59,213 nt of DNA from Obrimoposthia wandeli (taxonomy: Eukaryota), in assembly GCA_977020255.1 (NCBI GenBank), contig CDROCS010004439.1, forward strand, positions 1-59,213. Reading direction: 5' to 3'. The position numbers and the translations under genes were made by a program. Positions 20,174-59,213 of the stretch are shown here, piece after piece; position 1 is the stretch's first letter; every line of letters starts with the position of its first letter. The notes beneath the pieces are model-generated. The model saw nothing but the letters and a program-made list of their open reading frames with translations. It made no database searches and was not told the origin of the DNA.

Positions 20174-20175
20174 TA

Positions 20176-25960: not shown

Positions 25961-26310
25961 TTCGTCAATTAAAAGGATTATTTGTAATTGGATGAAAATT
26001 TTGTAAATTATGAATTTCTCCAATTAGAAGAATTGTTTATCTACATGTCAAGTAATAATAAGATAGACTTAAACATTTTTTATATGCGCAATGGTCACCA
26101 TGATCACGATATGGACAGCAAATATTTCGTGGAATTTTTAATAGATGATCACGTGAAATATTTAAAGTATTCAATCTCAAATTTGGAAAATATTTTTTTA
26201 AAGACTTATACTTTTTGCCATCCATTTCATCTAAAACATAAAAAATTCCATTTTCAATATCAAAATTAGATTTTATTGTATTGAAAATACATATTTCACA
26301 AAAAGCCTTA

Positions 26311-26750: not shown

Positions 26751-28104
26751 ATGTTCACATGTAAGTTTATTTTTGATTTTTTAAAACTATCATTTATCAT
26801 AGATAATTTCAAATCATTTAAAAATAAAATTAAAAATAACTTTTCGGTAGATGTATTTACATCACCAAACATAGATAATTTCAAATCATTTAAAAATAAA
26901 ATTAAAAATAACTTTTCGGTAGATGTATTTACATCATCAAACATACTTTGTGAAAGTAATGATAAGGTTAGGTCACCGGACACTGTTAGTACGTCCTCAG
27001 AATTTTTCTTTAAACATGAGGATTTTGGTAACATCACCACCAAATTTTCGTCACTTACCCGTATTGATGCAGTAGTTAGGTTCTTTCTGCCCACTTATGG
27101 TGCCGTTTGGTTGTCAGTAGATCCTAAACCACTACGATCATCATTAACACTTGGTGACTATAGAACTGGTTTGGTAACTGAAGTTATCATTCATCAAAAA
27201 CTTATAGGAGGTGATGATACTAATGCCTTGTCACTTGGTGACACCGCCTTAAGTTTTTTTCTAGATTCAAACGGTTCTCTTTCGTGTTGGTTTTCAATAC
27301 TAGAATCTCGATTTACGGCGCTGAACGTCACAAATCAGATGTCGAAAGTACATCGCACTTTACCCTTACTCACCGTTTAAAGTACTACAGAGTATTTCTA
27401 TGTCTTTGTCAGACGTTTTTGAAAATAAGGAACCTTTTACTGAACTGAAACGACTTATAGAATTTAAATATAAACCCTCATTTGATTCAGTATTTATTAA
27501 ATATTTCGGTTCACAATCACTTGGTGCAAAATCTCCTTCTGCATTCCTTAACACTGCAATCTCTGATTTAGAAACGCTACATCCCGGCATAACCAAAGAA
27601 AACAATAATAATTTGTGGCGCAAATTGTTCATTCAAGCACTGCCAAAAATGGCACAAGCAATTCTTGCTGGTAATGAGATGGTAGGTGATATCAAAATTC
27701 TTGCAAACTTGGCAGATCGCATCGTCACGAATTTAGAGCCTACGAAACCAGTATTTGCAATAAAGAGTGACATCGCAGAACCACAAGCATTAGATACTCT
27801 TACCAGTGTTATTTCGGCATTAGCAGATAAGGTATCACGTTTGGAAACTGAAATGACATCACATCGTTCACGATCTCCGCAACGTTCACGTAGCGCTTCT
27901 AGAGATCCTACTTTATGTTATTTCCATTATAAGTTTGGAAATGATGCTAGGAAATGTAACTTAGGCTGTGGTTGGAGACATAAGTCAGATAAACTTTTCA
28001 TTTTAGACACGTGCATCTATCACGCAAAATATAGAATTGACGCTAAGAAATGTTATCCAGGTTGTAAGTTCCAAACAGATAATTCTATTTCCTCAAAAAA
28101 CTAG
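26751..28104 (+). pseudogene. gag: Gypsy gag with two CHCC zinc fingers
   Basis: WFSILESRF..; a frameshift near 27352 joins to ORF 27400-28104 (LGAKSPSAFL; CYFHYKFGNDARKCNLGC and CIYHAKYRIDAKKCYPGC). A 72-bp tandem duplication lies at 26798-26941. Confidence 0.85.
28095..28101 (+). other. -1 ribosomal frameshift slippery site A AAA AAC
   Basis: Canonical X XXY YYZ heptamer in gag phase directly before the gag stop. The protease ORF is in the -1 frame. Confidence 0.8.
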
Positions 28105-31052
28105 TATCACCTTCGGTTACGACCGCAAACTCGCAAGGTGACTTATCATGCGGCATTTTTACTTCCCATGCTACTTTAACAGACTCCAATATCAATAGCT
28201 TAGAATTTCTCATTGATACAGGTTCAGCCATTTCGGCACTACCTATGTCCTTATATCCTACATTCCGCATGACCGACAGAATATTAGTTGCTGCAAATGG
28301 TACCACCGTTCATACTTATGGAACTACTACACTTCAATTTAGTCTTCAAGATATATCCACATCATTTAGTTGGACATTTACCATTGCCAACGTAACTCGT
28401 CCAATTTTAGGATCCGACTTTTTCTCTCATTATCGTCTACTAGTCGACTGTCATAACCAATGCGTACTCCACCCGACAGCACATGCAATTCCTCTGCCGA
28501 ACATCGAAATCAATATGCTTAACAAATTAACTGTCCAAAATTCTACTGCTTACATTACGGAACATTTTCCTAGACTTATTCATCGAACTACAGACATACA
28601 AAGCTCTGTTGAATCTTAACATCACATTATTACCTCACAATGCGCACCTGTTGGCCAACGTCGACGTGAATTGTCCCAAGAAAGAAGACTGCTATGTGAA
28701 GAGCAATTCTTACAACTTGAAAAAGATGAGATCATCAGACGTTCATCTTCTCCATGGGCTTCTCCACTACAAATTGTCCACAATAAAGATGGTACTTTGC
28801 GCATATGTGGCGATTATCGTGGTGTAAACAAAGTCACTATCCCTGATTCATATCCAATGCCTCTAATCAGCGATATCATTCAACGCTTTAACAAATGCAC
28901 AGTATTTTCGTCCATTGATTTAGTGAAAGCATATCATCAAATTCCGATGGAAAGTTCGTCGATAGAGAAAACAGCTGTCACCACTCCATTTGGACTATTC
29001 GAATATCTTCGAATGCCATTTGGACTTCGCAACGCGTCCCAAACGTTTCAACGGCATATAGATAGGGTCCTGCAAAATTTACCATATACAACGGCATATA
29101 TTGATGATATCATCATTGCATCGCCTAACGCTGAGGTACATAAAGTTCACCTTGAAGCAACACTCTCGCGACTAAATGAGCACAATCTACAGATTAAAAT
29201 GGCTAAATGTAACTTTTTTGCTTCACATGTAGAATTTTTAGGATACAATATTTCATCCCATGGTATTCAACCATTACCAAGTCGACTTTCTGCAATAAGA
29301 AACTTCCCTAAACCATCTACTACTACTGAACTACGCAGCTTCTTGGGAATGATCAATTTCTGCCGTAGATTTTTACCAAATCTATCTGGCAAACTTGCAA
29401 CCTTAACTACACTTTCCACTGGCAAGAAGCGTGCAAATATACAGTGGCCTGATAATGCTAACAACGCATTTTTACAAATAAAGGAAGAGTTAGTTGAAGT
29501 TACAACACTTAAATTCCCAGACAAGGATCTTACACTTACCACCGACGCTTCTAATGTCGCTATAATGATGCTTGCACAAATCAAACAAGACATTTCTGAA
29601 CCTCTTGAATTCTTTTCTCGTAAACTTTCGGTTGCACAAACCAGGTATTCCGCATTCGATCGAGAATAGTTAGGAATATACCTTTCTGTAAAGCATTTCG
29701 AACATCTTATTATTGGAAGGCATGTGATAATCTACACTGATCATAAACCTTTGATACATGCACTCACAAAAAAAAACTCCCAAACAACAGCGCCACATCA
29801 GCTACTTATCAGAGTTTGACATTGACATACGTCACATTTCTGGTGCAGAAAACATAGTGGCTGACTGTTTTTCACGGATTGAAATCGACTCAATTGATTT
29901 CGAGCCAATGTTATCACAAGATGTACTTGTGGAAAACCCTCCATCATCTGGAGACATATAATTATTTCAGACACCGCCTACCTTGAGAAATGGTATCTAC
30001 TATGACTATACTCTCAGCGGTTGTACTAGACTGGTGATAGGATTAAAATTACGCATTGATGTTTTTAAGGCAATCCATGCAATAACTCATGCAGGATTTC
30101 GTGCTACCTATGAACAAATCAAAACCAGAGTAGTTTGGCTCTTTATGCGAAAAGATATAAAGAATTGGTGCAAATCTTGTTTAGCATGTCAAGCCAATAA
30201 AGTCGTGAAACATACTAAACCACCAATTTTACAATTTCCAACAGGCAGCAGATTTGATACAGTACATATCGACATTGTAGGACCACTACCACCATCGAGA
30301 GGGTACACTTATTTACTAACTATGATTGATTGAAAAACTCGTTGGCCCGAAGCGTTTCCAATTCGTACAATATCAGCGCAAACTGTTGCTGACATCTTCA
30401 TAGCAAATTGGGTTGCCAGATTTGGTGTCCCGAAACGTGTTATTACAGATCAAGGCACCCAGTTTGAATCGGCGCTTTTCACATCACTAATAAAGCGTAT
30501 AGGGTCACAAAAAATTCGCACAACAGCATTTCATCCACAATCCAATGGTCTTATAGAACGATTCCACATAACGTTAAAGAATTCATTTAGATCACTTTCT
30601 GTTAACCACTATTGGATTCTTGCACTACCTTATGTGTTATTAGGATGGCGCAACATTATCAGCAGCAGACATGGCGCTTCTCCTGTTCAAATGCTATTTG
30701 GGTGTAACACCAATCTAATTGATGAAATATTTTTTGGCAACAACCCGTTAGATGATGTTCATGCGCAACGTGTCAGGGAACATTTTAAAACGCTGGACAC
30801 TACACCTACTACAAAATCTAGTCTGAATATATATGTACCAAAAGAGCTAAAAAACGCTAAGTATGTTTGGTTACAACGGGAATCTCCTACTTCCTTGCAG
30901 GCCAGATATTCTGGTCCTTTTCTTCTTTTACATAGCAATTTCGACAATAACACAGCAGTAATACTTGTAAACGATAAACAACGTACCGTAAACGTTTGTA
31001 AAATTAAACCTGCCTCGCATATAGATGACGACACGTGCTGTGGAGCCCTATA
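28101..31052 (+). pseudogene. pol: Gypsy pol (PR-RT-RNaseH-INT)
   Basis: FLIDTGSA; SPWASPL..ICGDYR; YIDDIII; TTDAS; TDHKPL; HAITH..CKSC; HIDIVGPLP; ITDQGTQFES. In-frame stops at about 28617, 29667 and 30331, and a frameshift near 29770. Confidence 0.95.
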
Positions 31053-31267
31053 AATTAATAAACATGTAACCTTTTCACCTTGGTGTACAATTTTCGGTGA
31101 ACAAACCTTACTAAAAACTTTCATTTAACATGCTTAATTTTAACTTTCATAATCTTTCATTAAATTAAATACTAAGTATAATTATATGTATATTTGATAG
31201 TGTTAAGAGATTGAGAATAGCTTCTTTTTAAATATTCCTTTTCGCTCCGCTACTTAGGTGGGGGCTA

Positions 31268-31602
31268 TGTAGTGAATTCATGTTTTGTAGTTACTTAATT
31301 AGCTTAAGTAATTGGTTGCATAATTATTCAATAAAATTATATAATTACGCAACAAACAAACCGTTTTATTTTATTTCGTTTTTAATTAATCTTTCAAATC
31401 CAACATGGTCAGCTGCAACAACGACTTCTCAAGCTAATCCGGCAGCATGGTCTATTTCTGCCAATGAACTATATTACAATTATTACCAAACTATATCTCC
31501 AGCAGTTACCACTATTTCAACTACTACTCAAACTCAAACTCAAACTGTGGAATTTAATCAAGACATAATATCACATATAATTAAATATATGCTTACACTA
31601 CA
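31268..31602 (+). repeat. 3' LTR (335 bp) preceded by polypurine tract AGGTGGGGG
   Basis: Matches the 5' LTR apart from one indel and a few substitutions. Confidence 0.95.
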
Positions 31603-34518: not shown

Positions 34519-36354
34519 TCATATTTTTGGTTGTTTTCTTCTGTGTTTAAATAAATTGAATACAGTTTTGCCTTTCTTTTGACCTGCATTTTTTGTTTGG
34601 GGATTAGTTATAAGCTCGTCAGCACTTTTACGAGGTTTAAAAAATTGATTATTTTTATTGACAATATACGAACAACTCTTTTCAACAGTAATGGGTGGAA
34701 GCAACGGTGGCGTATTTACTGTGTTTGTCGAATCAACTGGTGCCGCAATGTCATATATATCCTCGTCTTTTTGAGCTTCTGTACATCCCTGTTCATCAAT
34801 AGAATTTTCTGTCATCAAGTGGACGTTGTCTTGTTTCGTGGTATTACAATTTCTTGAATCAAATACCTTTGGTGCTTCTTTTCTAGCATAAATATTTTCA
34901 TAGCTCTTTATAATTGTTTCCGAGGATTCAAGTCCAATGTAGACTCCAAAATTTATCGCGTTAGGAACATCTGGTACTATTTTTGTAGTAGGGCTTTTAG
35001 AAAGATTTTCATTGCTCTTTACAATTGTTTCTGAGGATTCAGGTCCATCGTAGACTCCAAAATTTATCGAGTTAGGAACATCTGGTACTATTTTTGTAGT
35101 AGGGCTTTTAGAAAGATTTTCATTGCTCTTTACAATTGTTTCTGAGGATTCAGGTCCATCGTAGACTCCGAAATTTATCGAGTTAGGAACATCTGGTACT
35201 ATTTTTGTAGTAGGGCTTTTAGAAAGATTTTCATTGCTCTTTACAATTGTTTCTGAGGATTCAGGTCCATCGTAGACTCCAAAATTTATCGAGTTAGGAA
35301 CATCTGGTACTATTTTTGTAGTAGGGCTTTTAGAAAGATTTTCATTGCTCTTTACAATTGTTTCTGAGGATTCAGGTCCATCGTAGACTCCGAAATTAAT
35401 CGAGTTAGGAACATCTGGTGATTTTGTTTTGAAGTGTGACTGTTCAGCTGATTCTGTTTTATCCTGAGATTTATTTGGATTTATATTATGATCGCAGCCA
35501 AATTTTAGGGAATTTGACACATTTGAATCATGATTTTTAGATTCTTGCAATTCGATAGAATCTGTTTCAGTAGATTTTTTGATTGCTGTCGTATTGGCCG
35601 GTTTTTGAAGTAAGCCTAACTTAGTTTTAGAATCAGTCTTCCCACGCTGTGATTTAGGTATTACTGCTTGATATATGTCATCATCTTCCTCTTCTTTCTT
35701 GTTTTGCATAGATTTGGGTACCCCAGTTTCGCATTCATGTCCATCGTCCGATTCTTCTTTCTTTTCCTCTTCATCTGAGGTAAGCTTAACACTTATATCG
35801 CTGATTTCTAAATCTTTGGTGGAACATTTATGATGGTGTTTGATGTCTGGTTTTGATGACTTACTTTGCTGTGGTGGGGGAGGAGGAGGCCTGTCTTTAA
35901 CATTGCAATATAATTTATTTTCTGACAAGGAATCTTTTTTCAAGATTTGTGAATACTCCCGATTATCATAGTCACTATTAGATTCAAGATTATCACTGTT
36001 GAACGGATTTGCTTTTTTTTTCGATGCATCAATTTCTGGCATAGGACGCCTCTGTAGTTCCTGGTCATCAATGTTGGTCAAAGAAGAAATTTGGAAATTT
36101 GATAGAGGTTCATTTAGAATGTTTACTTTCTTTCCAACGTCATTATGAGGTTTTGCTGCATTGTTGTTTTGTGAATTTTGATTATCATTAGAAAATACGT
36201 TAGAGATTATTTGTTGTACTCCAGGTGAACTGGGTTTTTGTTTTGTCTGCGGTTTGTTTATATCTCTTTGTTTCGTTGAAGGTTTCGGAGGATAGGTGGG
36301 ACGACTGGGTGGACTTTTGGTTTCTGAAATAAATGAAGTATGACATATTTTCAT
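34519..36354 (-). CDS. Probable host low-complexity protein or large exon with Pro-rich motifs and Tyr-motif tandem repeats
   Basis: Uninterrupted 611-codon ORF in a region where nearly everything else is decayed. No recognisable globular domain. Confidence 0.7.
   Translation of the reverse strand: MKICHTSFISETKSPPSRPTYPPKPSTKQRDINKPQTKQKPSSPGVQQIISNVFSNDNQNSQNNNAAKPHNDVGKKVNILNEPLSNFQISSLTNIDDQELQRRPMPEIDASKKKANPFNSDNLESNSDYDNREYSQILKKDSLSENKLYCNVKDRPPPPPPQQSKSSKPDIKHHHKCSTKDLEISDISVKLTSDEEEKKEESDDGHECETGVPKSMQNKKEEEDDDIYQAVIPKSQRGKTDSKTKLGLLQKPANTTAIKKSTETDSIELQESKNHDSNVSNSLKFGCDHNINPNKSQDKTESAEQSHFKTKSPDVPNSINFGVYDGPESSETIVKSNENLSKSPTTKIVPDVPNSINFGVYDGPESSETIVKSNENLSKSPTTKIVPDVPNSINFGVYDGPESSETIVKSNENLSKSPTTKIVPDVPNSINFGVYDGPESSETIVKSNENLSKSPTTKIVPDVPNAINFGVYIGLESSETIIKSYENIYARKEAPKVFDSRNCNTTKQDNVHLMTENSIDEQGCTEAQKDEDIYDIAAPVDSTNTVNTPPLLPPITVEKSCSYIVNKNNQFFKPRKSADELITNPQTKNAGQKKGKTVFNLFKHRRKQPKI
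34890..35418 (-). repeat. Coding tandem repeat, 111 bp / 37 aa, 4 full copies plus 1 partial
   Basis: PDVPNSINFGVYDGPESSETIVKSNENLSKSPTTKIV repeated almost identically. Confidence 0.95.
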
Positions 36355-39309
36355 AAGTCTATTAAATCTTTTAAAATAAATATATATTTCAACATATGAT
36401 GCAACCCCTTTTGTTTTAATGTATTACTTAGGCACTGTTGATTAGTTAATACATTTTAAACATTGCTTTTAAAACAATACAGCATATATAAAAGTTTCAA
36501 CCGGTTTTTAAAAAGAATTAAATATTTAAAAACAGTTTCAGTCGTCTGTTTGATTTATTTTAAAACTTTGGTTTTGTTATTTTTATTATACCACTTTAGA
36601 ATTAATTTTATATACAAAATATATCATACATTTATATCATATATCGTAAATTTATTTTATAATTAATATATTATACACAAATAATATAATAAAATTTATT
36701 AAAATTAAGTAGGTACATGTTTAATTTATTAAAAATGTTATTAAAACATTAAGTTTAAAAATTTAATTACAAAATTGTTCTTTATGAATATCAAAAAAAT
36801 AAAAAATGAAACATAACAAATTATTTAAAAAATAGAATAAAGTATTATAAGTACCATCAATAACAAACAAAAATGAAAATGTCAATTTAAAGCTCTGTCA
36901 TTTTTTAAACTCAGTTCTATAAATACATTTTTTTAATTTAACAGTGATTATAGAACTTAAATAGATTATTTAAGGTTCAACAAAAATTATAATTTATAAT
37001 TACAATATTTTCAAATAATAATTTTATCATTTTTAAAATACATAATTTACAAAGTAAATTTAAAGAATTATGAAAATAACTAATAAACAAGGAAAATATA
37101 ATATAAACTATTTACATAATTGTAGAAAATAATTCATTCAAAACCAGTTTCACATGAAATTTTGAATCTTGAAGATCATTTAAATAAAATTAATTTGATT
37201 AGTTAGTTAATTTTTTTAGTTTCTACAAGTATTTAGCAGATATGAATAATAAAATTGATATTCACTGGTACTCTGTTGGAATTATTCAATTGTAAATGTG
37301 TATTTATTTGTGGAAGTAATATTTATTTAACATTTTGATAAGTGCCAAATCAAACAATTTTGTATACACTCAAAATCGTTTATAACTGTCAAAGCTCCTG
37401 ATATAATGCCCGACAAAATTTTTGAATAATTTATATTTTATCATATTTTTGTTAAATTGTTTCAAATAAAATTCAAAAAAACGTGATAACGAGACTTTAC
37501 ATTAATACGTTTTATCCTATCATAAATATTCAAATAAATGATTTGAGATAACTAGTTATTAGATTTTAGATAAGTGGGTAAATAAAAAAATACTTAATTT
37601 TAAATTAATTTTGTGATTCTTGTTGTAGAAACAATCTATAAATTTCTGTGTGCGAAATGCCACAAGTTCAAACTAAAATTCCAAGGTTTATTGAGCTCAA
37701 TCGCTGAAAATGGTCAATTTTAAAGTTTCAGAATAAGATTTAAACAACACTTTACGATTAAATATGCTTCCGTCAATGAATAACCCCCAATCTGACTTGA
37801 TATCAGAGAAAGTTCCCGATTATTTTAGTATCCTTGTATCTCACTCGTATAAATGATGTGACGTTTCTCCTACAGTCCTTGAATATATATTCTCAAACAT
37901 GTAATATGGGTAATATGGGTCAATACCCCGGTCATCAGAGGTCACTGCCTAATGCAGTTTGGGGATCCTTCAATATGTATGTTCATTATATCTAAAACAA
38001 GTTTTTTTGTAGTTTCAAAATTTAAATGCGGATTATCGAAATTAAATGATCAACTGGATGTGATCAAAAACCTTAAATATTTTCAAATTAAGCCAAATAA
38101 ACTCCATTAAATCTGAAAATTAACAAATGTCTTTTGTTCTTATATCTTTGTTTTTATCACGACTCAATGACTAGTCGCCCATACTAGTCCACATGAAAAT
38201 CCAGCCTTAGTTATTGTAATATACATGTATTGAAACTATGAACATTGATTCCAATTGAAGTGGAGAGATGAAAACCAGTAGCACACAATGAACAGAGCAA
38301 TTATAATGATTAAATACGAATAAATAACCGTAGAATTATTCTGTCAATTCTTATTAAATGGAAAACCCCTAAAACATATGATAAAATAGCTTTTAAGAAT
38401 TAGACATTTCTTTATAGCAGTGACTAGAATTTTAAACTTACTTTAAGACAGAATATAACCTTTCAAGAATTTATAAAATTCTTATTTTTTAAAACTCATG
38501 TTTAAATGAAATACTCGAATTTGGTGTATGGGTATATCTTGAATATAAATCTAGATGCGATTAAATAAATTTAACTTCATAATCGGGAAGAGCTGTTAAC
38601 AGGTAAAGCAAATGGTTAGTAGTCTTCGAGATGTAACGTCTTTAAGCTATTCCCAAACTTTAATTAGGTACGATGTGTGACTTTCTTCATTGAAGTCGCA
38701 GGATTTAATACAAATGCCTAGTAAACCATTTTTTGTAAGCCAACTTTTAAATTTTTAACATAGACAGCATTTTTTATCAGACACTTTACCATATTTTAAA
38801 TAATGGCAAATACTTATAAAAAGGCGTCTTTATTCGAGTACAACAAATTGCTACAGAAAAATGACCACATAATAAACCGAGGCTACTGGATGCAACCCCT
38901 ACAAACCATGCCTTAATCCAGCACTGGAAACCTGGTTGCTAGAATTCTTAATATATAAGTTTTTAAAATTTTTATTGTGTAGTGTTATCGGATCTGGCCA
39001 GCCCCAGTTTGAGAAATTTCAACCACCTAAGTCAATGATCAAAGAACTTTCTGGTCATACCTTGCATGTAAAATGCTAAATCTCAAAGATATTTGACAGA
39101 CCAACTTCCAACATTCACAGGCCCAAAATGATAGACTTAAATATCTTACGATCAGATAGTATATTCTATCAGATAGACTGGTAATATAATCTATTATTAC
39201 TATATTCGATAATCAAGAACCTCATAGTCACCGGGGTGGTTTGAAGATTCCATCGATTCATCTAGACTCTAGATTCTAGAGGTTACCAATAAGCCCATCT
39301 TCACGAAGG

Positions 39310-44414: not shown

Positions 44415-44723
44415 TTAATACCCTTTAAAATTGAAAATCTCATAGTGCTCCCACAGAGTGAGGAATATTGAAATGTATAATGTCAGAGCTGTTGTAGATG
44501 AAATACAAAAAATAATTAATATATATTTGGTTATAATTTTATTTATTTGTGTTTGATTTCTAAATTCTCAAATAACGTTTAATCTAACCAATATTTCAAT
44601 GTTATCTCTTGTTATATCATTAATTTTTTATTCTGATAAAATTTGTTTACCCCTAATTTTTCCAGAAAATATTTCAACGACAAGCCGATTTACTTCATTG
44701 TCTGTATTTATAGTATTATTCAT
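44415..44723 (-). pseudogene. Small ORF with C-terminal hydrophobic segment
   Basis: 103 codons in one frame with two internal stops, including YILIIFCISSTTALTLYISIFLTLW. Confidence 0.35.
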
Positions 44724-44789
44724 TTGATATAATAGGTTTAAACGGTTTTGTTTATAGAAGAAAGATAACAAGATATAATAAAATATATT

Positions 44790-45254
44790 TTATAAAATCG
44801 AATCAATAATGTCTGGATAATAAATTTTTTTCAATCCTAATATCATAACTTTGCCACTGGGATATATATTTACACATAGTGGTTTAAACTTCAAATAACT
44901 GAGTGCAGGAAAAATTTCTGGTTCAAGCATGCATTCTTCTTTCATTTTCTCTGCAATTTTATAAAGATTTATTGGGTTTCCGAGATTAGCTGAAATTGTG
45001 ATTGATTGTTTTGCAGTGATTCGAATTCCAAATGGTAAATTGAACTCATTCAATGTTTTTTTGCATCCCATAACACGACAACTTCCTAAAAGAATTCAAT
45101 ATGAAAATAAAATAAAAAACTAACCTGAGGGAAAAATAACAACTGTAAAATAGTTAAACCTTTTCACATATTGTCTCAGCTTTCATTCATTGAATAGTAA
45201 GTACGAAATATCATCTGCTATTCTGATTTTATAATTTATATTTACGAGTTTCAT
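44790..45254 (-). pseudogene. TATA-binding-protein-like gene: 2 exons (45254-45125, 45085-44790), 39-nt intron, one internal stop
   Basis: Spliced product MKLVNINYK..TVVIFPSG|SCRVMGCK..ANLGNPINL..LEPEIFPALSY..PLCVNIYPSGKVMILGLK reproduces both TBP repeats (LIFSSGKMVCTGAK; YEPELFPGLIY..LIFVSGKVVLTGAK). Confidence 0.85.
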
Positions 45255-45531
45255 TAAACTAAAATTTTATTCTGTAAATTCTTCTTTATATATGCCTGAA
45301 CCTGCATTTTTATAACGCATTTCTTGTAATTATCTTGCAAACCTAATATAATTGGATGATATATTTCTTCCAATCAATATCGATTTTTTTTAATATGGAT
45401 TTAGTCCAATCAAATTCAATGTTTTAGTTATTAACCAATGAGATTCATGTCTTTGTTACTACTTAGTATAAAAGAATGCACCATTGGAGGACAAATCATA
45501 ATAAATGCATTCATATCAAAGACAATTATAA

Positions 45532-45981
45532 ATGATGGACGATAGCCAACAGATATTAAGCTGTGATGAAGATTTAGAAATGTTTGAAGAATCGGATAAG
45601 GATATGTATGAAGAAGTGAAACAATATTTCAAATATAAAGTCAGATTCATGAAGAAGCCTCAACTGATTGCTTTAGTAAATCCTGTGACAATTGAAAGAA
45701 GAAAGTTCAGCTATTATCTATCAAATATTCAATAACCAGATTTTCAATATCTTAAACAGAAAGTTAAAAAGGCAGTTCCACATTTTACTTTCTATAAGAA
45801 CGAATTTTATATCCGAGGAGCCGATGCAGCATTTCTAGATGACTATGGAAGAGAAATAGATGTTGATGCGTTTCCGAAACAAAAGCAATGGACTGTAACA
45901 ATTCGACTTCATGGTTACAAGAAAGATGAAATTGGAACAAAGTTACCTATGTGGAAAATTGAACGTGCTCATATATTTTAA
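45532..45981 (+). pseudogene. Maverick SSB-like gene A (149 aa, one internal stop)
   Basis: A single frame reads through TAA 45733-45735 to ..AAFLDDYG..WTVTIRLHGY..KLPMWKIERAHIF*. It is paralogous to gene B; the SSB function is inferred. Confidence 0.55.
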
Positions 45982-48355: not shown

Positions 48356-49677
48356 AGGCGGGGTATGTGTAGATGGATAAAGTTAATGAAAAATACTGTA
48401 GCACCCGGAGGGGCGCGTTGGGGCGACCGCACCCCCGCCTCCCAAAGGGGAGGGGAGCAGACGGGTCGAACATTTTTGGGCGGAAGGACCTTAGGAGATA
48501 TTTTGTTGACCTCTTTGTTGATATTTTTCAAAATTTCACTACACACACATGCATGAAATTTCACTCCACACACATGCACGATTTTAAAGGACAGTTGTAG
48601 CCCCCCGAATGGACAGGGTATTAGACCGGACATATCCACCTTCTACAAAAATTAACAAAACTGACGTATACATATCCACGAATTTATAGCTGCTGTATCA
48701 AAAAATTACATCAAACTGTTATAGGCTGTGAATAGGCTTGAAGATGGTAGGTTACTTATGAATAATTTAATTTTATATATCATTCCTTTTGTTTTTATTT
48801 TTCACACGAGATGGAATTGAAGATGGTAGGTTACTTATGAATAACCCGGTACAAGACAATGCATTTCCTCTAACTTCAAATTTACCGAGTATTTTTTATG
48901 AAAATAACGAAATTTAATTCGTACAAATTAACCTCCTTCTTTAGACAGATATTATAGAAAATATTTCGACTATAGTTCATAAAATTTTAGGAAAGGTTTT
49001 TGACAACATTGAAAGAATTAAAAATGAATTTCTGAAAATTTATCTGAAAACGATAAAAAAAACTTTATTCATCATTGCCTTGTCGAAGAATAGTATATTA
49101 CGCGAAGACAATAAGATATTAACTCTGTGATTTTACTTTATGTTTCACTAAAAAATTCTGTTCATATTTGTGTGACATGAATAAATGTTGTAGTGGTCTG
49201 TTTTACTTGTCACTTTGAAAATATATAAATAGTATTAAGCATTGTATATTTACGAAATTAATAGTTCGTTATCGACAGATTAATATTATAAAAAGACAGC
49301 TTAAAATAACTTTGGATTTGTGACTCTTACCAGTTTATTCATTTACAGACAACAAAAAATTATAAATAAAAAATAATATACAACATTGTGGACGAATACC
49401 ATAGTGAATTAGCATTTTTGACGTTCACTAGAAAACATGACCTATTGTTATATAATTTAAAAAATACTAACATTTAAGAAACAGTGCAGTTATCAAGAAA
49501 TAATTAACCATCCGTGATATCATCACATTTAGTTTATAAAGTTTAATATTGTTAAGAATATAAAAGAGTATTTGTTAAAATTGGTTAAAACCATAAAAAA
49601 TATACCTTTGACAAACAGATACTCAAAATTTAAAATAAATTAACATTACTTAATATTAACCTATACACATACACAAC

Positions 49678-50750
49678 TGTTAATAAACGGGTGTAAGGCA
49701 AAGACCAATATCCTCAACAATATATTCACAAACAACTATCCAATTTTGTTAACAAATATTCTTTGTGGATAACAATATATTCAATTCTGATAAATAACTA
49801 TTCTTTGGATAACAATATATTCAATTCTGATAAATAAATATTCTTTGCGGATAACAATATATTCAATTCTGATAAATAACTATTCTTTGGATAACAATAT
49901 ATTCAATTCGGATAAATAACTATTCTTTGGATAACAATATATTCAATTCTGACAAATAAATATTCTTTGTGGATAACAATATATTCAATTCTGATAAATA
50001 TCTATTCTTTGGATAACAATATATTCAATTCTGATAAATCAATATTCTTTGTGGATAACAATATATTCAATTCTGACAAATCAATATTCTTTGTATAACA
50101 ATATATTCAATTCTGATAAATCAAATCAATATTCTTTATTCTTTGGATATCCAATGTAAAAATATAAATAGTTTGTGAATAAATAAATATTTGTGTTATA
50201 TCCAATTTAAATGGTTGCTATTTATAGCAAAAACTGGTAAATCCAGGTAGAGGAGATTCTGCTGGTAGCTGGCACACAACAACAGAACAGATGCCGGAAA
50301 ACATCGCTGTCTGTTCGACTTCTGGGCAGAGAAATCCTGGACAGGTGAGAAATCTGGCCAAATAAACTGCATCAACACACAAACCACAGATGCCGGAAAA
50401 CACGCTGTCTGTTCGACTTCTGGGCAGAGAAATCCTGGGACAGGTGGGAAATCTGGCCCATATAAAAACTGCATCAACACACATACACAAATAAACACAT
50501 TTTAGCTGTGAGTGAGTAGTGAGATGAGTATGTAAGTGAGTATGTGAGTGTTAATGTTGAGTGAGTTGTGAGTGTAAGGAAGTTGAGTGAGTGTGTGTGT
50601 GTGTGTTGAATTGTGCACTCATATATATGTGAGTGTTAATGTTGTGAGTGAGTTGTGAGTGTAAGGAAGTTGAGTGAGTGTGTGTGTGTGTGTTGAATTG
50701 TGCACTTGCGCACACTAACATCACATGTCGACAATATTCGTCGGCACATG
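49678..50750 (-). repeat. Probable 3' LTR rich in internal tandem repeats
   Basis: On the - strand: 2 x about 80-bp CA-rich units (50545-50707), 2 x about 100-bp units (50288-50482), CTATAAATA near 50222, AATAAA near 50135, 9 x 40-42-bp units (49757-50130), and the end TTATTAACA at 49678. The upstream boundary is uncertain. Confidence 0.55.
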
Positions 50751-50820
50751 AAAGGGGGAATCTTTCCTCTTTCCCTGACTTTATTATTGTTATCTCTGGC
50801 TTCGCGGAATCCACCGTGAA

Positions 50821-50904
50821 GTCAGAGATAATAAACGCCATCTCCTGATGAGCCCGGCAGGGCGAAAGGGGCTTTTTCCCGTCGGAGATTGATTATCTTG
50901 AGAC
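50821..50904 (+). ncRNA. Type I hammerhead ribozyme, slightly decayed
   Basis: ATCTC-CTGATGA(50845-51)-GCCC/GGCA/GGGC-GAAA-gGGG/CTTTTT/CCC-GTC-gGAGAT. A distal stem I (AGATAAT 50826-32 pairing with ATTATCT 50892-98) lies beyond an internal loop. Two deviations from consensus. Confidence 0.8.
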
Positions 50905-51270
50905 AAAATGCCAAAGTGCATATTTTTAAAATAGAACTTTTCCTAATTAAGGAAAGTTCTAATTAATTCTTTAGTTAATTAATTTTTTTTACTTTTTATT
51001 TTTTAAAAATTTTTATATTTTTATTTTTTCAAAATAAATAGTTATAATATTTTCCCAACAATCTCCGGGTCATAAAAAGTCTCTGTCCTCAGCTTTATAA
51101 TCTATATTTTAATTATTGATGAAACTATTTTGTCTTGTTACTATTGTTAACTAGTGTTGTTTGTATGTTATAACTGATCAATGTTTTATTAATCACAATC
51201 ATGTCTGGTTAAATATCGTTAAAAATTTAGGACAAGAATGAAAACAGAATAAAATAATAACAATACTACC

Positions 51271-52442
51271 TTAATCCAACAAAATCGGGGAGTTTTGTGT
51301 ACCGGACTCCGAGTTTCCGGTCTTATGTGAGAACGATGAACTGGGGTTGTTCTCGCTAGATGGTGGATTCATCACCTCGGTCAAATCAAACTCTCTATTC
51401 AACATTTCCTCCTTCATTATGAAAATTTTTCGGGTGTGATTTGCATCTTCCATGCTAGTGTGGACTCCTTTTGTGTTTCTATATTTAAGTATTTCCGCAC
51501 CATGTTGGCGAGTCCAATATTTGGATGATTGGGATTTAGTTCTGATTTTTGCTTTCAGATATTCCTAAATCAACAATGTTGAATAACATCCATTTCTGTA
51601 GGCGTAAAGCTTTTAAATCGTTTGTTAGTCCCACACCTACGATGATGTTACCATACACAATGTTTTTTACTTCCTCAATTACTTCATCAGCATCTCTACA
51701 TCCTTGTAACTTTCTATCTGACAGTCCAGTTATTCTAGTAACGTAATTTCTTACTCTATCTCTAGTTACGCACAGTGTATCTATAATTACGTTACCTATG
51801 TAATTTATAATAGAAACACTTGCTAAAACTGGCTGTTTATCTACTGATATCACCATTTCGCAATCGAGGAATAAAATTGCTGGTTTCTGTGCGTTTTTTT
51901 AATTCAAAAAGGGCTATTTGTTGAGGTTCTTCTGCTTTTCTTATTTTTTCTATAAATAATAGATTTGGTCCTCTTCCTATTTTTATGCTATATTGATTTT
52001 CTAATTGAGCTGCTTGTAAGGTGTAGGTGGATTTCCTATCATCAGAAAGTTTAATGTCTTATCTGATTTGGTTTTTAAATGGGCCACTCCTAGTGCCACG
52101 TGAATATCTATTTTTTCACAATTATTATCGGGGAATATTTCGCTGAGAGCCATATGGGTTGGTCTTTTTTCATTGGAAAAAATAAGTGCGCTTGTTCTTT
52201 TTCTTCTGTGGTACTTTTAACTTATTAGGAAGAAATGTTTGATTTGAAAACATTTTTTCTTCCTCCGTTGTTTCTAAAGTATGCAATGCTAAACTGACGC
52301 ATCTTTGATACAGGAATTTTGCTAAATACCACCTTTCTGGTATATTTTCCGTTTTTCCTCCTTTTCTATTTTTGCTGTGCTTTTTGTTTGATCTGACCGA
52401 GAGTGAGCTGGTCTGAGTCGTATCCAGGTGATTGTTATCCAT
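51271..52442 (-). pseudogene. ORF with basic N-terminal region and C-terminal DEDDh 3'-5' exonuclease (REX4/ISG20-like)
   Basis: ILFLDCEMV..LASVSIINYIG..IIDT..NYVTRITGL..IIVGVGLTNDLKAL..IGLANMVRKYL..GVHTSMEDA. All D-E-D-H-D residues are present, with frameshifts near 51545 and 51470. Confidence 0.88.
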
Positions 52443-52499: not shown

Positions 52500-53005
52500 A
52501 GTTATAAAAATATCAGTCTTATCCATGCAGTATGTGGGATTTGTCATGAAAATAAACTTATTAATAAAAGTTAGACAATTTGTACAAAGGAGGATGTATG
52601 GTTATAGTTTAACCAGAATTTTGTTCACCAATGTTCATATCCGAGTCATATCCATCATCAAGTGTTGTATTAGTTGGGATAGTAGGATTAATGGTCATAT
52701 AAAAGTTTATCATGTCGCTATAGGTCATCATTTGTCTTCTTAATGAGGCTATAGTTGATCGTTGACTTAAAGTTGTTGTATTAAATAGTCTATTCTGCCA
52801 AAACTATGTGTCAATCTCCCTTCTAGTTCGTCAATTGTTAAATCATTATTCAATTTTTTCTTCCACACTTTGTTTTATTAACTGTTTCAGTGATTCATTT
52901 TGAGTTGTGATCTTTATATAGTAGTCGTCATGCTGTCTGGAAACATCTCGAATCTTTTTCTCTAATTTTTTGCATTTTTTACAAACTTTTGCCAATCTGT
53001 TCATT
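52500..53005 (-). pseudogene. Decayed coiled-coil ORF of unknown function
   Basis: MNRLAKVCKKCKKLEKKIRDVSRQHDDYYIKITTQNESLKQLIKQSVEEKIE.. with several stops. Confidence 0.35.
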
Positions 53006-53229
53006 TTTATATCTAAAAATAACCATTATTAAATTTCAGGATGCGTTTCCTGGTGATTTTATTTTAATATTATTTCATTAAATCGTCTTTAAAAATATAC
53101 ATATATCAAATTTTTATTCTATTTCCTAACTAATTTAGATTTACTTAATAGTACTAACATTTTTTGTTACTTAAACGGTTTTATTTAAAAAGGATTTGAT
53201 TATTGTGTTATATTTCTTTTCCTATTTTC

Positions 53230-54420
53230 TATTACAGTATTTATGGATAATTCTGAAGAATTCTCATCCTTGGGAATAATATAAATAGTAAAAGGGCCTG
53301 GGGGCCCACAAAAGTGTTTTAGTTGTTTTGTTTCTATCATTTTTGTATGTTTCAAAATTAACATTCTCCATGATATTTGATTTATAAAAATATAATTATT
53401 TCGATTACTATAACTATTATTATAAGTTCTTTTTTATCTTCATTCCTTGAATGTTCTTGTTTACCATAGTGCATTTTTAAACTTTCATTAAATGATTTAT
53501 AGGATATTGTTTCTGTTGTTTTTAATTTTAATTTAATTCTTATTTTTTCCGTAATTTCAACTTGATTTGTAACTCTGTAACTTTTTGATGTAAATGTTGT
53601 GGTATGTAGCAATTGTTTTGTGGTTATTTCTTTAACATATTTCTTAATTTTTACTGCTGACCAACGACCACAAAAAATTGTAGGTTGATATAGTTTGATA
53701 TCTTATTTCCTAAAAAAATTGTTAATTTTGTTAGATTTTTATAACTTTCAAACTTTTGACTCCATTGTCTGTACATTATTGGTTTATTAGTGATTACGCA
53801 TTCTCTATTGTCTATTATTATTTTCTTTGGATATCTTATATTTTCTATGGTTAAATTTGTTTTAGTTTGTGTATTTTCTAATTGTTTTTCTGAGTCTTTC
53901 CAAAAATGAGCATTATGATCTCTATATCTAATTCTAATGATGGCTTTATCTAAATTATCTATTTTAAGTTGAAATTCCCATTTTATCATGATTTGATGTT
54001 TTTATATATATTTTGCTGTTGTTTTTAATATTGATGCTAGGTATATGTGAGTTTCTATAATTCTTTCATAGAGTGTTATATTTTTTAATTTCGACTTAAT
54101 TCTTATTTTTATATTGTGTTTCTGTTCTTAAAAATGGTATTGTATATTTTTGTGATTTTATTCCTGAAATAATTATATTTTGTTTTCTATCTGTTTGTGT
54201 GATTTGCACATTTTCCTGTTTTGTTTGTAAGAAGAGAAATTTTTAACTTTATTGATGTGATTTCAGGTATTATTGTTAATCCAAAAATTTTTATGAGATG
54301 AGTTGTTGAGTCGAATTTATTTGTTTGTTGTTGTATGATTGATTGATTTTCATTTATGTTTGTTGCGTTTACTTTCAGTAGGTAATATTTTATTATAAAA
54401 TATATTATCAATAACATCAT
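53230..54420 (-). pseudogene. Second putative type I membrane protein downstream of integrase
   Basis: N-terminal signal-like MMLLIIYFIIKYYLLKVNA and near-C-terminal LIIIVIVIEIIIFL. ORFs 54187-54420, 53651-53989 and 53382-53612 can be linked across stops and frameshifts. Confidence 0.5.
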
Positions 54421-54483
54421 TATTTTACCAATTTCTTTTATTGATATTTTATTGTATTTCTGGTTTGATGACTCAAAATAGTT

Positions 54484-55850
54484 TTATTTTGTTTTTTGTG
54501 AGTTTTTTATTGTCAACATTTGTAGAACTGTATTATAATTAGTTGATCTTAAGTTATATTTGTGACTTTTTATTTTTGTATTCTCCTCAGGTATTTCTCG
54601 ACATCTGTTTATATGTGCTCTTATTTCTTTTGATTTTGGTTCATTATCTAGTTTAGCTGTTATGTTGGTTCCGTTGGTACTAATGACTGTATATGGTCCT
54701 TTGTATGGTTTTGATAATTTGTGAGACAATCCTACATTAATTTGTGGATTGTGAATCATCACTTTACTTCCGCTTTTTATATTTGATGGCTTAGTTCTTC
54801 TATCATAATATTCTTTGTAATTTTCTTGTATGTTTTTTACAAATAGTTTAGCTTTTTCGAATGCTAGTTTTATTCTTTCTCTAATTTCTATTTTATATTC
54901 AGGTATTTCTAAATATTGTGTAGTAGGTTGTAGTAATGTTAGGTCAATAGGCATTTGAGGATCTCTGAGGAACATAAGATAAAAAGATGTTTCTCCTGTG
55001 GATGCATGTACTGATGTTCTATATGCAAAAAGGCATGGAGGTATGTGTAAATCCCAATCTGTTTGGTTGTTGTTTGTGTATGATGCCATCATATCTTCGA
55101 GGGTTCTATTAAATCTTTCTACTAACCCGTCAGTTTGAGGGTGATATGGTGTTGTATTGATCTTTTTATGTGAAAAATTTCAGCTATTGACGCTAATACA
55201 TTATTTATAAATTCAGGACCTTTGTCGGTTATAATTTTCGGGGTGCACCGAAAGTAAAAATAATTTTTCGACTAAAACCTTCGCGATGGTTTCAGCCTTA
55301 TGATCATGTGTAGGAAAAGCCTCTGGCCATCTTGTAAAATAATCAGAAAATACTATTATATATCGATTTCCTCGGGGTGTTTGTGTAATGGTCCCATTAC
55401 ATCCATGGCAACAGTTTCCATGGGGGCTGATGGATAAGGTATTGGCTTTAAAGGTATTTTGTGGTACGTAAAGTATTTTTCCGTTTAAGACATATTTCAC
55501 ATGTTTTTACACCAATTTTTTACATCTTCTTTTCATGTCAATCTAATAGTATTTTAAATTTAATCGTGAATGTGTCTTTTTTGATGATAAATGTCCTCCT
55601 AGGGCTCCATTATGATATTGAAGAAGTAATTGACACTGAATTTCTTTAGGAATAACTAGTGAATATATAGATTTTTGTCATTTAAATAATATAATATTTC
55701 ATTACTATATTTGTATCGTGATTCGTAGATTTTTAAATGTTTTCTTAATTTTTCATCTGTTGGTACTTCGTTTGTGCTAATGTATTTAGTTATTTGCTGA
55801 ATTTCATTATCTTTGCTTTGAAGTTTAGTAATTACTTTTTTCATCATATT
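54484..55850 (-). pseudogene. Gypsy integrase
   Basis: HHCC region (KNWCKTC), MDVMGP..GNRYIIVFSDYFTRWPEAF, TPYHPQTDGLVE, KLSKPYKGPY (GPY/F module), YNLRS. Confidence 0.93.
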
Positions 55851-55989
55851 TAGCTTGAATTATTGTAAAGATTTAATTCGATGTCGTTAGCAGTTATTTC
55901 GTTTATTTCTTCTCTTATTCGTGATAGACAATCTGCATTAGCGTTAAATTTTTTTTTCTATATTTTATTTCAATATCAAATTTTTGTAA

Positions 55990-57100
55990 AATCAATGCCC
56001 ATCTCATTAATCTAGATGTTGTATCCTTATGATTTAAAAGCCATTGTAATGGTCTTTGATCTGTGTAAACATAAACCTTTCGTCCTAATAAGTAATGTTT
56101 AAAAATGTTCCATTGCGAAACAAATAGCCAGCATTCTCTTTCTATCGTTGAGTAATCTTTTCATGTTTTTAAGACCTCTGCTCGCATATGCTATCACATT
56201 ATCTTTTCGTTATTTTCCTGTTGTCCTAAACTGCTCCTAACGCATAACCACTGGCGTCAGTCATAACTAAAACGAGTTATTAAAATTAGATATCTAAGTA
56301 TAGGTTTTTTCGATTAATTTTTGTTTTAAATATTCATAAGATTCTTGTTGTTCTTTTTTCCCATTCAAATTTTTCTTTATCTTTTTTAATAAGTTTATTT
56401 AATGAACTATTTGTGCGAAATTTCTAATAAATCTTCGATAATAATATCCTGCAAGCCCTAAAATTCTGTATATTTTTACTGTTTTTGGGATTGGAAAATT
56501 TTTTAATCTTTTTCTACATTACTCTCGTCTGGTTGTATTCCTTTTTGCTGGATACAGCATGTCCTAAGTAATTTCATTTTTATCTTTTTATCCATTCATT
56601 TCTTTGGTTTTAGTTTTAATCCTGCTACCTGTAATCTTAAGAATACGTTTTCTAAATCTTTAAATGTTCTTCAAAATTTTTGAAAAATAAGAATGTCGTC
56701 GATATACCATTACGTGATCTGCATCCATTAAAATATATGGCTCATACATCTCTGAAATGTTGCTGGAGCTCCGGTTAATCCAAATGAATTCATACAATCC
56801 TTCTCCTGTTGAGAAAGCTGTTTTATATTTATCTGACTCCTCACTTCTATTTGCCAGTATCCACTCTGTAAATCTAAAGTTGTAAATACTTGTGCATTTT
56901 TTAGTTTGTCTAATATTTACTCACCTCTGGCAGTGGATAAGTATCTTTGTGAGTGACTTGCTTCTAGTTTTCTGTAGTCTACGCAAAACTTCAAAGAACC
57001 ATCTTTCTTTTTTACTAAAACAACAGGTGATGTCCATGCAGAAAACTTTTCTAACAATTTCGGCTTTCTAACATTCCTTTTATTTGTCTTTGAGCTTCAT
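55990..57100 (-). pseudogene. Gypsy reverse transcriptase and RNase H
   Basis: [79 protein letters not shown]. Many frameshifts. Confidence 0.95.
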
Positions 57101-57689
57101 CTCTGTAGGCATATGGAATTCGGTAGGTTTGTTTTATTGCGGTGTTTGTTGTTAACGGAAGATTTATGTTTTATCAAATTTGTTCGACCTAAATCGTATT
57201 CATTTTAGCAAATATTACATCATATTTTCTTGTTAAAGTTTTAAGTTTTGATTTTTCATAATCATTTAATTTGATATCGTTAAAATTTATCGTAGATTTA
57301 TCTTTTATTTTTCATTATCTATTAATTCAATATTTCAATAACATCTCTATTTTCTCAAGACGTACTCCTTCCTTGAGATGAATTTTATTAATGTCTGCAT
57401 TTAGATTCTTGATTGGTATTGTGTTGTTTTTTATTTTACAAATTATATTTGGCAAAACGTAGTTCAAGGTTTCTGTTGATATTTATAAGACTCCAAATAA
57501 TACATCTTTTTTCCGCATTCGTTAGTTTCTAGTTGTAACATTGTTTCTGTTCTTGGTTGGAGAATGATATCTTCCTTTTATTTCTTAACTCGTATTCATC
57601 TTTGGCGTTAGGTCTGTAATGCTCATTTGATTTTTTTCAAAATCAAAGTGAAATTATTTCCTAATTCTCAATGTATCTATTCCGATGAT

Positions 57690-57960
57690 CATTTGGCAAA
57701 GACAATTTTTCATTATTTTTGTAGGTATTTTATGAATTTATTTCCTATTTTAAAAAGAAAGTCTAATTTTCCTATTATATTTACGGGCGACTGTTTGCTG
57801 CTGTGACTTGGACTATTTTCCTTAAGAAGAAGTAATTTTTGTTGTGTTTTAAGAAAGATTCGTCTAAAACTGTTACGTTTCTTTGATCCTGTGTCAATTA
57901 AAGCTAAGTTTATATTCGTTAATTTCTACTTTACATATGGTCATGTTTATCGTTATCTTT
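57690..57960 (-). pseudogene. Retroviral-type aspartic protease
   Basis: CKVEIN....LIDTGS (across a frameshift) ..IIGKLDF..MIIGIDTL. Confidence 0.8.
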
Positions 57961-57989
57961 TGATTTATTGTATATATTGTTGGTGCAGT

Positions 57990-59213
57990 TGATTTTTGTA
58001 TAGTTGTTTTATCTATATATTTTCTTAAATCAGGATATTTTGAAGATTCCGTTTTTTCTGTTTCTTTTGGTACTTGTAATTTTTTGTATATTTGTTTCTC
58101 GCATTTCATTTGATAATGTGTTACTATGTTTTGATGATGATTAAAAAATAAGGAATTTTGCCAAAAATGGGACACATCCTAAGACACTTCCATGTTAATC
58201 CTCCAACTTATAAATATAATATGTTGATAAAATTTGACTTAGAAGAATCTTAAAGCAAATTAATACATATATTCCAACTAATCCAGAAAAATGCTTGTCC
58301 AAAAATTAAAATTTACCCCATATTTTGACATGGTGTTTAGTGGCTTTATAAAATGATTTGGAGTAGAAAGTAATGTCGTAATCGGACGGCTAATTCCGTC
58401 AGGTAATTGATCTTTTCTATGATTTGTGTTAAAATTCTGGATCTTATTTTAGAAATAAAATTTCATTTTCTTAACTATCTATATCTTCCTGTATATAAAT
58501 TCCTTTGTGTTTAATCTGTTATCTGATTGTATATTGATGCCGTTAAGGAGAGTGGTTAATTGTAATTTTGTGGCCTCCTAAGTGACAATATCTCTTCTGG
58601 AAGTGAAAACTAAATATATTTTGAAATTTGATAATGAGGTGCCAATATGTTTGAGCAGTTTATTTCTTTTATGCTAAAAGTGTTATATGATTCTAGTGAT
58701 TGGTTCACAAATAATGAATTATTTTTCAAGAAATTGGTAATTTTTTGTACATTTTTGATGATTTCTATGTTAACTTTTCTACTTTTTACATTGATAAGTG
58801 TATAACACCTCCCATTACTCTTCCAAAAAGTACCGTCAGCTAATGGTACAATGGTGTTGGGAATACTCCTGGGTTAGTTAGTAAATAATTGCCAATTTCG
58901 TTTTTAATATTTCCTGATTTAATTTTACAATCATTCATTATGGTTTCTCTATATATTGCTTCTATTGTCATTAGTCTCAGATAAAAAATAATCTAATTTA
59001 GGTTAAAATAATCATAATTTTTAATATCAAATTTAGTTGGTGTCGTTTTTGAATTATGTATTTTTCATTACTAAATATATCCCTTTTTATAATTAGTTGT
59101 GGAACAGAGTGTCCACATCGATTTCTTTTTAATAAACGTGATTCCTGAACCTTGTTCAATAGACACAATATAGTTGGAGTTGGTTAATACGCACCGAACG
59201 GAAGCACAATGAT
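57990..59213 (-). pseudogene. env: gB/chuvirus-like env, C-terminal half, directly upstream of protease
   Basis: LLTNP..DGTFGRVMGGVIHL..EPITRII..EINCSNILAPHYQI..IWGKF..FSGLVGI..GLTWKCL. Homologous to 13020-13300. Confidence 0.72.

Follow-up and report, generated by a model that had tools for sequence, protein, structure and literature searches.

An accessory gene of an LTR element in Obrimoposthia wandeli encodes a predicted two-domain protein, in which an N-terminal AlkB-like fold is joined to a DEDDh exonuclease. A broken copy of this gene was found on the minus strand of the window, i.e., the whole 59,213-nucleotide stretch of DNA that was analyzed. The element around the gene is a young, high-copy, envelope-bearing Ty3/gypsy errantivirus of the GAG-ENV-POL type, and sequence comparison indicates that the accessory gene is old and conserved in several element lineages. 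The product may act in trans as a counter-defence RNase whose AlkB-like barrel selects the substrate; we give this reading a probability of about one half. The features of the element in the window are as follows.

50645..51060, minus strand: start of the 3′ LTR, which begins TGTTG at 51060 (84–86% to sister LTRs; blastn to the loci)
51271..52442, minus strand: broken copy of the 389-aa accessory gene (AlkB-like fold plus DEDDh exonuclease), collinear with unbroken sister ORFs, with start and stop mapped
51406..51883, minus strand: DEDDh exonuclease domain, residues 186–345, placed by codon map; catalytic codons present, split over two frames
51930..52322, minus strand: N-terminal double-stranded beta-helix domain, residues 40–170, with an AlkB/2OG-oxygenase-like predicted fold; canonical metal triad not conserved
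52612..53025, minus strand: broken copy of a 138-codon ORF (tblastn with a natural copy; coiled-coil-like Pfam matches weak and below cut-off)
53206..54483, minus strand: long polyprotein extension after integrase, no family assigned (tblastn)
54484..58370, minus strand: pol with protease, reverse transcriptase, RNase H, and integrase, heavily frameshifted (Pfam rve and RT_RNaseH on pieces; tblastn)
58383..59213, minus strand: 3′ part of a class III (Monjiviricetes-type) env (tblastn; PF24664 on a sister frame)

The window is a whole contig that ends inside env, so that gag, the 5′ LTR, and the remainder of env are missing from this copy. In a sister frame, env matched PF24664 (E 1.2e-69) and was followed by aspartic protease, reverse transcriptase, RNase H, and integrase. 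The order of the element is gag, class III env, protease, reverse transcriptase, RNase H, integrase, extension, 138-codon ORF, nuclease ORF, and 3′ LTR, and the extension reads in frame with pol in contig C214 (a 1503-codon frame). An earlier note on this DNA had placed the gene between pol and the LTR; consistent with this, the integrase and its extension end near 53200 in the window, the 138-codon ORF spans 53025–52612, and the LTR starts at 51060. The match of one sister to the 3′ LTR runs on to about 50290, and a 40/42-base tandem array (49669–50203) adjoins the LTR. ARAGORN detected no tRNA in four 5′ loci, and TGG directly follows the 5′ LTR in four copies.

In family A, the family of the window element, all six loci with flanks were full LTR-gag-env-pol-nuclease-LTR elements, whose paired LTRs were 94–100% alike and whose length was approximately 14 kb (13.5–15.1 kb by LTR bounds). 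The 120-aa open piece of the window gene had 3649 candidate matches in the 1.35-Gb genome, and the best 150 of them, which were scored, showed identities of 96–100%. The gene is thus present in at least 150 near-identical copies, and a chance motif match was ruled out. Together with the full LTR elements around the gene and the best matches to ISG20L2 and ISG20, the copy number, which the earlier note had proposed to determine, bears out its description of the gene as REX4/ISG20-type cargo of a retroelement. The 391-codon frame was kept in 48 of the best 150 copies by hand count and was missing in 102. A 210-codon frame was common to 15 of the 150, and in two loci with this frame the remaining sequence was collinear with the element. 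The element may therefore have spread with the gene interrupted, although some of the breaks may be assembly errors.

Residues were numbered according to P0001, a natural unbroken copy of 389 aa, which served as the reference. The codon map against P0001 placed the catalytic codons on the window minus strand at 51865 (D192), 51859 (E194), 51619 (Exo II D274), 51571 (D290), 51462 (H327), and 51447 (D332). The first four of these codons share a frame, H327 and D332 share a second one, and no continuous frame for the gene runs from 52442 to 51271 on the minus strand. Compared with each of four unbroken sisters, the window copy had 29–34 substitutions and 11 indels that shift the frame, two of them within the nuclease domain and the other nine ahead of it, whereas two sisters differed from each other by 13 substitutions and no indels. 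Hence, the claim that all catalytic motifs lie in an intronless frame was right as to the motif codons, all of which are present, but not as to the frame. The 120-aa open piece (51898–51536) matched Pfam RNase_T with an E-value of 1.7e-4, below the curated cut-off, and matched ISG20L2 and ISG20 at E 1e-6. The indels in the window were mostly of one base, about half of them in homopolymer runs, and in pol, where 46–47 indels were counted in 2.5 kb relative to the sisters, indels outnumbered substitutions. Both decay and assembly error are possible causes, between which the four sequencing runs of one sample do not distinguish. The same four runs gave no clear splice joint in the region at high summed depth.

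The catalytic set of the nuclease domain was conserved throughout the family, which was assembled from a HMMER search. D192, E194, H327, and D332 were each present in all 24 aligned members, and Exo II position 274 was acidic in 24/24 (Asp in 19 and Glu in 5); the His of the Exo II "GH" motif was kept in only seven. Pfam RNase_T matched the unbroken copy with an E-value of 4.6e-7 (31 bits vs a cut-off of 24). The nuclease model matched ISG20 with Z 21.5 and an rmsd of 2.0 over 161 aligned residues, in agreement with a DnaQ/RNase T fold, and scored lower against DnaQ (15.5) and RNase D (10.6). Profile matches were obtained with ISG20L2 (E 4e-29), ISG20 (6e-23), SDN1 (1e-15), and PAN2 (5e-8). 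On these results, the domain is predicted to be a metal-dependent 3′–5′ DEDDh exoribonuclease of the REX4/ISG20 type. ISG20L2 and ISG20 are its closest matches by sequence and fold, and the tree described below is unrooted and holds no REXO1, PAN2, or ISG20 rows. Membership in the DEDDy group known from rotifer elements was rejected, as the Exo III residue was His rather than Tyr in 24/24 and the Z-score was 10.6 for RNase D vs 21.5 for ISG20.

The earlier note had regarded the gene as a captured host nuclease, but a recent capture does not agree with the distance to the host gene. Over 90 aa, the element gene was 32% identical to the REXO4 candidate of the host (G000:C325), which was 50–54% identical to other REXO4-like proteins and 26–33% identical to the element versions. 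In a maximum-likelihood tree of 56 nuclease domains, 31 element-type domains were split from 25 cellular ones, including the host REXO4, at 100/100, and the comparison with the host gene proposed in the earlier note thus placed the two on opposite sides of this branch. This tree is unrooted, retains 25 of 134 cellular rows (10 chosen and 15 random), and was calculated without second domains and without the long-branch P0020. A first tree of 162 rows, made by a quick method, had put 10 unlabelled proteins in the element clade; these were then added to the group, so that the element group of the 56-domain tree is partly defined from the first tree. Seven of the added proteins were full length and aligned over the N-terminal domain, and three were fragments.

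A processed host REXO4 pseudogene, the single-copy case that the earlier note had named as fatal to its view, was ruled out by the 32% identity, the 100/100 split, and the copy number. Relatives that share only about 53% identity in RNase H-integrase have the same gene downstream of pol. Because the host REXO4 is distant and the gene is shared by these relatives, any capture would be ancient. In short, the sequence comparison excludes a recent retrocopy, and the tree does not name the donor. The absence of introns, which had been taken to fit capture through RNA, is hardly informative, since the cargo of an RNA-replicating element loses introns anyway. Among the cellular REXO4-like proteins, P0007, P0009, P0038, and P0043 had two tandem nuclease domains, and P0007 and P0009 are from tapeworms.

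Genome searches whose queries were a cestode REXO4 and a distant relative revealed further families. In families B and C, element sequence lay directly upstream of the nuclease in 9/9 loci, with gag-env-pol in eight, and in families D and E all six loci were linked to an element, and four of them showed gag, env, and pol within the retrieved sequence. In family F, none of the three loci (contigs C422, C2698, and C2378; loci L167–L169) had pol directly upstream. The family F nuclease lies outside an LTR pair in C422 and has no nearby pol in C2698 and C2378, and the C2698 locus carries a long tail of 34-aa tandem repeats and an inverted duplicate. Three neighbouring ORFs were also recorded. A BIR + RING (IAP-like) ORF (L078:6892-7665, plus strand) lies just outside the 3′ LTR in a copy of family C. 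In C422, a Burro-like element of about 24 kb has a 1792-codon frame after integrase (L182:1889-7264, minus strand) with dual-specificity phosphatase domains (E 1e-40). An intronless PCNA ORF (L186:8125-8877, plus strand; E 9e-52), which may be element cargo, lies about 3 kb downstream of a Burro-like pol and runs in the opposite direction.

Relatives of the protein were also found outside this genome. In a HMMER search of 1.84 billion representatives, unnamed proteins that matched both halves (best E 5e-38) outranked all REXO4-like matches. A word-index homologue search gave one REXO4-like match with the single protein and, with the alignment, three matches of any kind at E≤1e-25. Among seven loci of a JGI metagenome, the gene followed a single env-pol polyprotein of 3000–3200 aa in two, preceded gag in one, and adjoined RING or TRAF/MATH ORFs in two; the other two loci were too short to tell. 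The relatives P0138, P0083, and P0076 recurred in numerous ENA metagenome assemblies on contigs of 15–17.6 kb (clusters of 24, 7, and 4), as whole genomes of elements or viruses would. Four scans of viral contigs for relatives found none, and residues 35–180 gave no usable match in the ESM Atlas.

The N-terminal part of the protein had been described as a long basic extension. Residues 40–170 contain 19 Lys/Arg and 10 Asp/Glu and were modelled as a beta-sandwich with a pLDDT of mostly 76–94; a basic low-complexity tail was therefore ruled out in favour of a conserved predicted folded domain. The model was alignment-based (15 sequences, whole protein, pLDDT 80); single-sequence folding gave a pLDDT of 33. 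Residues 21–170 of the model matched ALKBH6 with Z 11.3 and an rmsd of 3.0 over 135 aligned residues, followed by Ofd2 (10.4), OsALKBH1 (10.4), ALKBH5 (10.1), and a viral prolyl hydroxylase (10.0). ALKBH7 also matched, and the Z-scores of the 2OG oxygenases other than ALKBH6 were 10.0–10.4, with identities of 6–13%. Foldseek also listed a cupin and, among viral matches, plant-virus replicases, whose match ranges were not given and which presumably matched through their AlkB domains. The likeness to AlkB is that of one predicted model, against which prolyl hydroxylases score almost as high as ALKBH proteins.

AlkB enzymes are defined by an HxD/E...H iron triad and an RxxxxxR 2-oxoglutarate motif (PMC9289625). 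In the column census of the N-terminal domain in 24 sequences, His113 (22/24), an acidic residue at 164 (19/24), and Gly117 stood out. Neither an HxD/E pair nor a second His column was found in the 24 sequences, the next-best His column reaching 6/24, and the last strand had no Arg column; the only Arg column, 81 (12/24), is near the start of the barrel. As judged from these alignment columns, the iron triad and the Arg motif are not conserved, and membership in the AlkB enzymes was rejected. In addition, hhalign against a shallow profile of 77 enterobacterial-type AlkB sequences (Neff 2.9) gave a probability of 0.1%, and no 2OG Pfam match was obtained in 15 family members. The N-terminal domain is predicted to have a 2OG-oxygenase-type fold and is probably not a canonical enzyme.

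The dN/dS comparison that the earlier note had proposed gave values far below 1 between families. Between families D and E, the nuclease showed 0.073 and the N-terminal domain 0.059, which are rough values because dS (1.7–2.5) is near saturation, and families A and B showed 0.34 over the whole ORF. At this level of precision, both domains are under purifying selection. Among 14 unbroken copies, single-copy variants of the N-terminal domain comprised 11 non-synonymous and 5 synonymous changes, and shared variants comprised 5 synonymous and 2 non-synonymous changes over 78 and 294 sites, respectively. The within-family variant count for residues 186–301 was left out because it is biased by the search.

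In families B, C, and D, RNase H-integrase was 97–99% identical (pS 0.06–0.08), whereas the nucleases were only 41–46% identical (pS 0.78); between families D and E, the nucleases were 79% and pol 88% identical. Since saturated synonymous sites adjoin a near-identical pol, faster protein evolution alone is insufficient, which argues for recombination of the 3′ cassette. The simplest reading, for which each family is represented by one copy, is that element lineages apparently swapped this cassette. This swapping, the env between gag and protease, and the second folded domain were absent from the earlier note.

If the protein is a counter-defence RNase, its separate ORF after the polyprotein stop would be translated from a spliced or subgenomic message. 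An ISG20-type activity would attack RNA whose 3′ end is unprotected but leave poly(A)-protected mRNA intact; ISG20 has been described to spare PABP1-loaded mRNA (PMC10902665). The RNA of the element itself would then be safe, whereas the enzyme could reach small silencing RNAs, their precursors, or cleavage fragments. The N-terminal barrel, in which the canonical iron site is not conserved, could serve as a binding module, perhaps via His113 and Glu164. Versions swapped between near-identical pol backbones would fit a gene in conflict with the host better than a part of the replication machinery, and the neighbouring cargo of the relatives, which is of the host-signalling type (RING, TRAF/MATH, and dual-specificity phosphatase), also speaks for counter-defence. 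On the other hand, 102 of the best 150 copies are without the 391-codon frame, and family F is detached from pol. Cassette swapping is also seen in neutral 3′ regions, which further weakens the case, as does the absence of a clear link between rotifer ORF3 nucleases and copy number.

The last point is taken from the rotifer study (PMC5408684). Between the two roles that the earlier note had offered, end processing and suppression of silencing, the evidence leans to counter-defence. A more specific version, which we regard as tentative and doubtful, is that a catalytically lost AlkB-derived barrel reads an RNA mark (e.g., m6A or a methylated 3′ end of small RNA) and passes the RNA to the ISG20-like exonuclease. 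In this version, the deeply different forms would be swapped in an arms race with the piRNA system, and the gene would belong to an old lineage of animal errantiviruses; its relatives on the recurrent metagenome contigs of 15–17.6 kb hint that it is widespread, possibly even beyond host chromosomes.

A possible, though somewhat doubtful, alternative to counter-defence is that the protein is an auxiliary replication factor, which trims the 3′ end of the element RNA or of the primer tRNA, clears RNase H fragments, or trims cDNA ends. Such a role would suit REX4/ISG20L2-type enzymes, which process structured RNA ends, and a gene that keeps its place across lineages with about 53% identical pol. 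The same role has been proposed for rotifer DEDDy ORF3s (PMC5408684). A partner of reverse transcriptase or integrase should, however, track pol, and here 41–46% identical versions sit on 97–99% identical pol; packaging would also not be assured for the product of a separate ORF outside the polyprotein. To our knowledge, most gypsy elements replicate without a nuclease gene of this sort. Another conceivable role is proofreading of reverse transcription, by which the nuclease would permit element genomes of 14–30 kb in the manner of nidovirus ExoN. The elements are long, and DEDDh ExoN has been linked to large nidovirus genomes (PMC11848433), but the nuclease does not co-vary with pol and its closest relatives are ISG20/REX4-type RNases, not DnaQ (Z 21.5 vs 15.5), making this role very improbable.

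The N-terminal domain may alternatively be an active non-canonical oxygenase or metal enzyme that removes RNA modifications, after which the RNA is degraded or released. The fold matches to ALKBH6, Ofd2, ALKBH1, ALKBH5, and ALKBH7 (Z 10.0–11.3), the presumed AlkB domains of the plant-virus replicases, the conservation of His113 (22/24) and of an acidic residue at 164 (19/24), and the active m6A demethylase carried by an orchid gypsy element (PMC9289625) are consistent with such an activity. Nevertheless, we consider it unlikely, because the columns of the HxD/E pair, the second His, and the RxxxxxR motif are not conserved, whereas the orchid protein keeps all of them. Finally, the gene could be a neutral passenger, derived from a host nuclease that was acquired a single time; this would explain the many broken copies and the excess of non-synonymous single-copy variants in the N-terminal domain (11 vs 5 in the 14 unbroken copies). 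The shared variants there show the reverse ratio (5 synonymous and 2 non-synonymous). The catalytic residues, moreover, are invariant over sequences only 20–40% identical, and between-family dN/dS is far below 1; these two findings largely refute the passenger explanation, to which we assign a very small likelihood.

Some other features of the window were recorded. A TBP-like ORF (44790–45095, minus strand; Pfam TBP, E 7e-11), which may be a virus-borne TATA-binding protein, lies in a repeated unit (44466–45974, also matching C141 and C214) among Polinton/adintovirus-like pieces. The stretch 17301–25956 contains what we take to be Polinton/adintovirus-like pieces, with a protein-primed polymerase-like frame (22369–24943) and capsid-like copies (17301–17993 and 20673–21862); Pfam and NCBIfam gave no match on these pieces. 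A second, unrelated gypsy element (27325–31053, plus strand) showed gag, protease, reverse transcriptase, and integrase by eye, with no env seen, and is flanked by repeats at about 26309–26727 and 31266–31602. A fragment of the start of another class III env (14073–14474, minus strand; PF24664, E 5e-5) and a 634-codon low-complexity frame with 111-base repeats (34519–36423, minus strand) were also observed.

Little is known about the counter-defence proteins that elements encode, or about how LTR elements reach thousands of copies in animals whose piRNA systems are strong. The present gene is a small, testable candidate: its 389-aa product has an intact nuclease site and a second domain predicted with confidence, its natural versions range from 20% to 80% in identity, and it bears the mark of cassette exchange. 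It places an antiviral-type host enzyme family (ISG20/REX4) on the side of the virus. Even a helper that only trims RNA ends would be a new type of accessory gene for errantiviruses.

A close known counterpart is found in bdelloid rotifers, where the Juno/Vesta LTR retrotransposons and Athena/Terminon carry a DEDDy exonuclease as ORF3 (Rodriguez et al. 2017, PMC5408684). As described there, ORF3 resembles the present gene in being a DEDD-superfamily 3′–5′ nuclease in a separate ORF downstream of pol, with intact catalytic residues and a sequence nearer to other element copies than to host genes. It differs in being an RNase D/WRN/mut-7-type DEDDy enzyme in families without env, whereas the present nuclease is of the DEDDh REX4/ISG20 type, fused to a second folded domain, and carried by an element with env.

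As for the element, GAG-ENV-POL errantiviruses with HSV/gB-type env have been reported in Platyhelminthes, Nematoda, and Bryozoa (Chary et al. 2026, PMC13524379). The present element likewise has LTRs, a gag followed by class III env and then protease, reverse transcriptase, RNase H, and integrase, and many young copies, and the env of a Schmidtea element listed in that paper resembles that of the window family by eye. The main text of the paper does not contain the word "nuclease", and seven of its supplements contain neither "exonuclease" nor "AlkB" (PMC13524379). Burro/GYPSM1, the giant gypsy elements of planarians, also have an in-frame env that separates gag from pol (Arkhipova and Yushenova 2019, PMC6431247), and their accessory ORFs with MATH/TRAF and RING-type domains have counterparts flanking the nuclease in the relatives L082 and L084. 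The consulted text of that review lists no nuclease for Burro. The window family differs from Burro proper (>30 kb, with BIR/BCL2/MATH/dUTPase cargo), and membership was rejected, since it is about 14 kb (13.5–15.1 kb) and its scanned frames gave no Pfam matches to BIR, BCL2, MATH, or dUTPase. A figure in Grohme et al. 2018 may label a DEDD RNase in Burro, which would lower the novelty of the present finding.

In the open-access literature, no DEDDh or AlkB-fold-DEDDh cargo of an LTR element was found; nuclease cargo of the DEDDy type is known from rotifers and AlkB cargo from orchids, and we did not find the AlkB-fold-DEDDh fusion in print. Among cellular proteins, ISG20, ISG20L2, and REXO4 gave the best sequence and fold matches, yet the identity is 23–32% and the element proteins form a separate clade, with a folded barrel at the N-terminus where host REXO4 has a lysine-rich stretch. 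Gypsy elements of Phalaenopsis carry an ORF with an AlkB domain (PMC9289625), and this ORF and the AlkB domains of plant RNA viruses resemble the present protein in that an AlkB-type fold is an extra on a mobile RNA-based element. The orchid protein is described as a recent ALKBH5-like capture that has all cofactor residues and shown activity (PMC9289625), whereas in the present protein the triad is not conserved, the identity is 6–13%, and the domain is fused to a nuclease.
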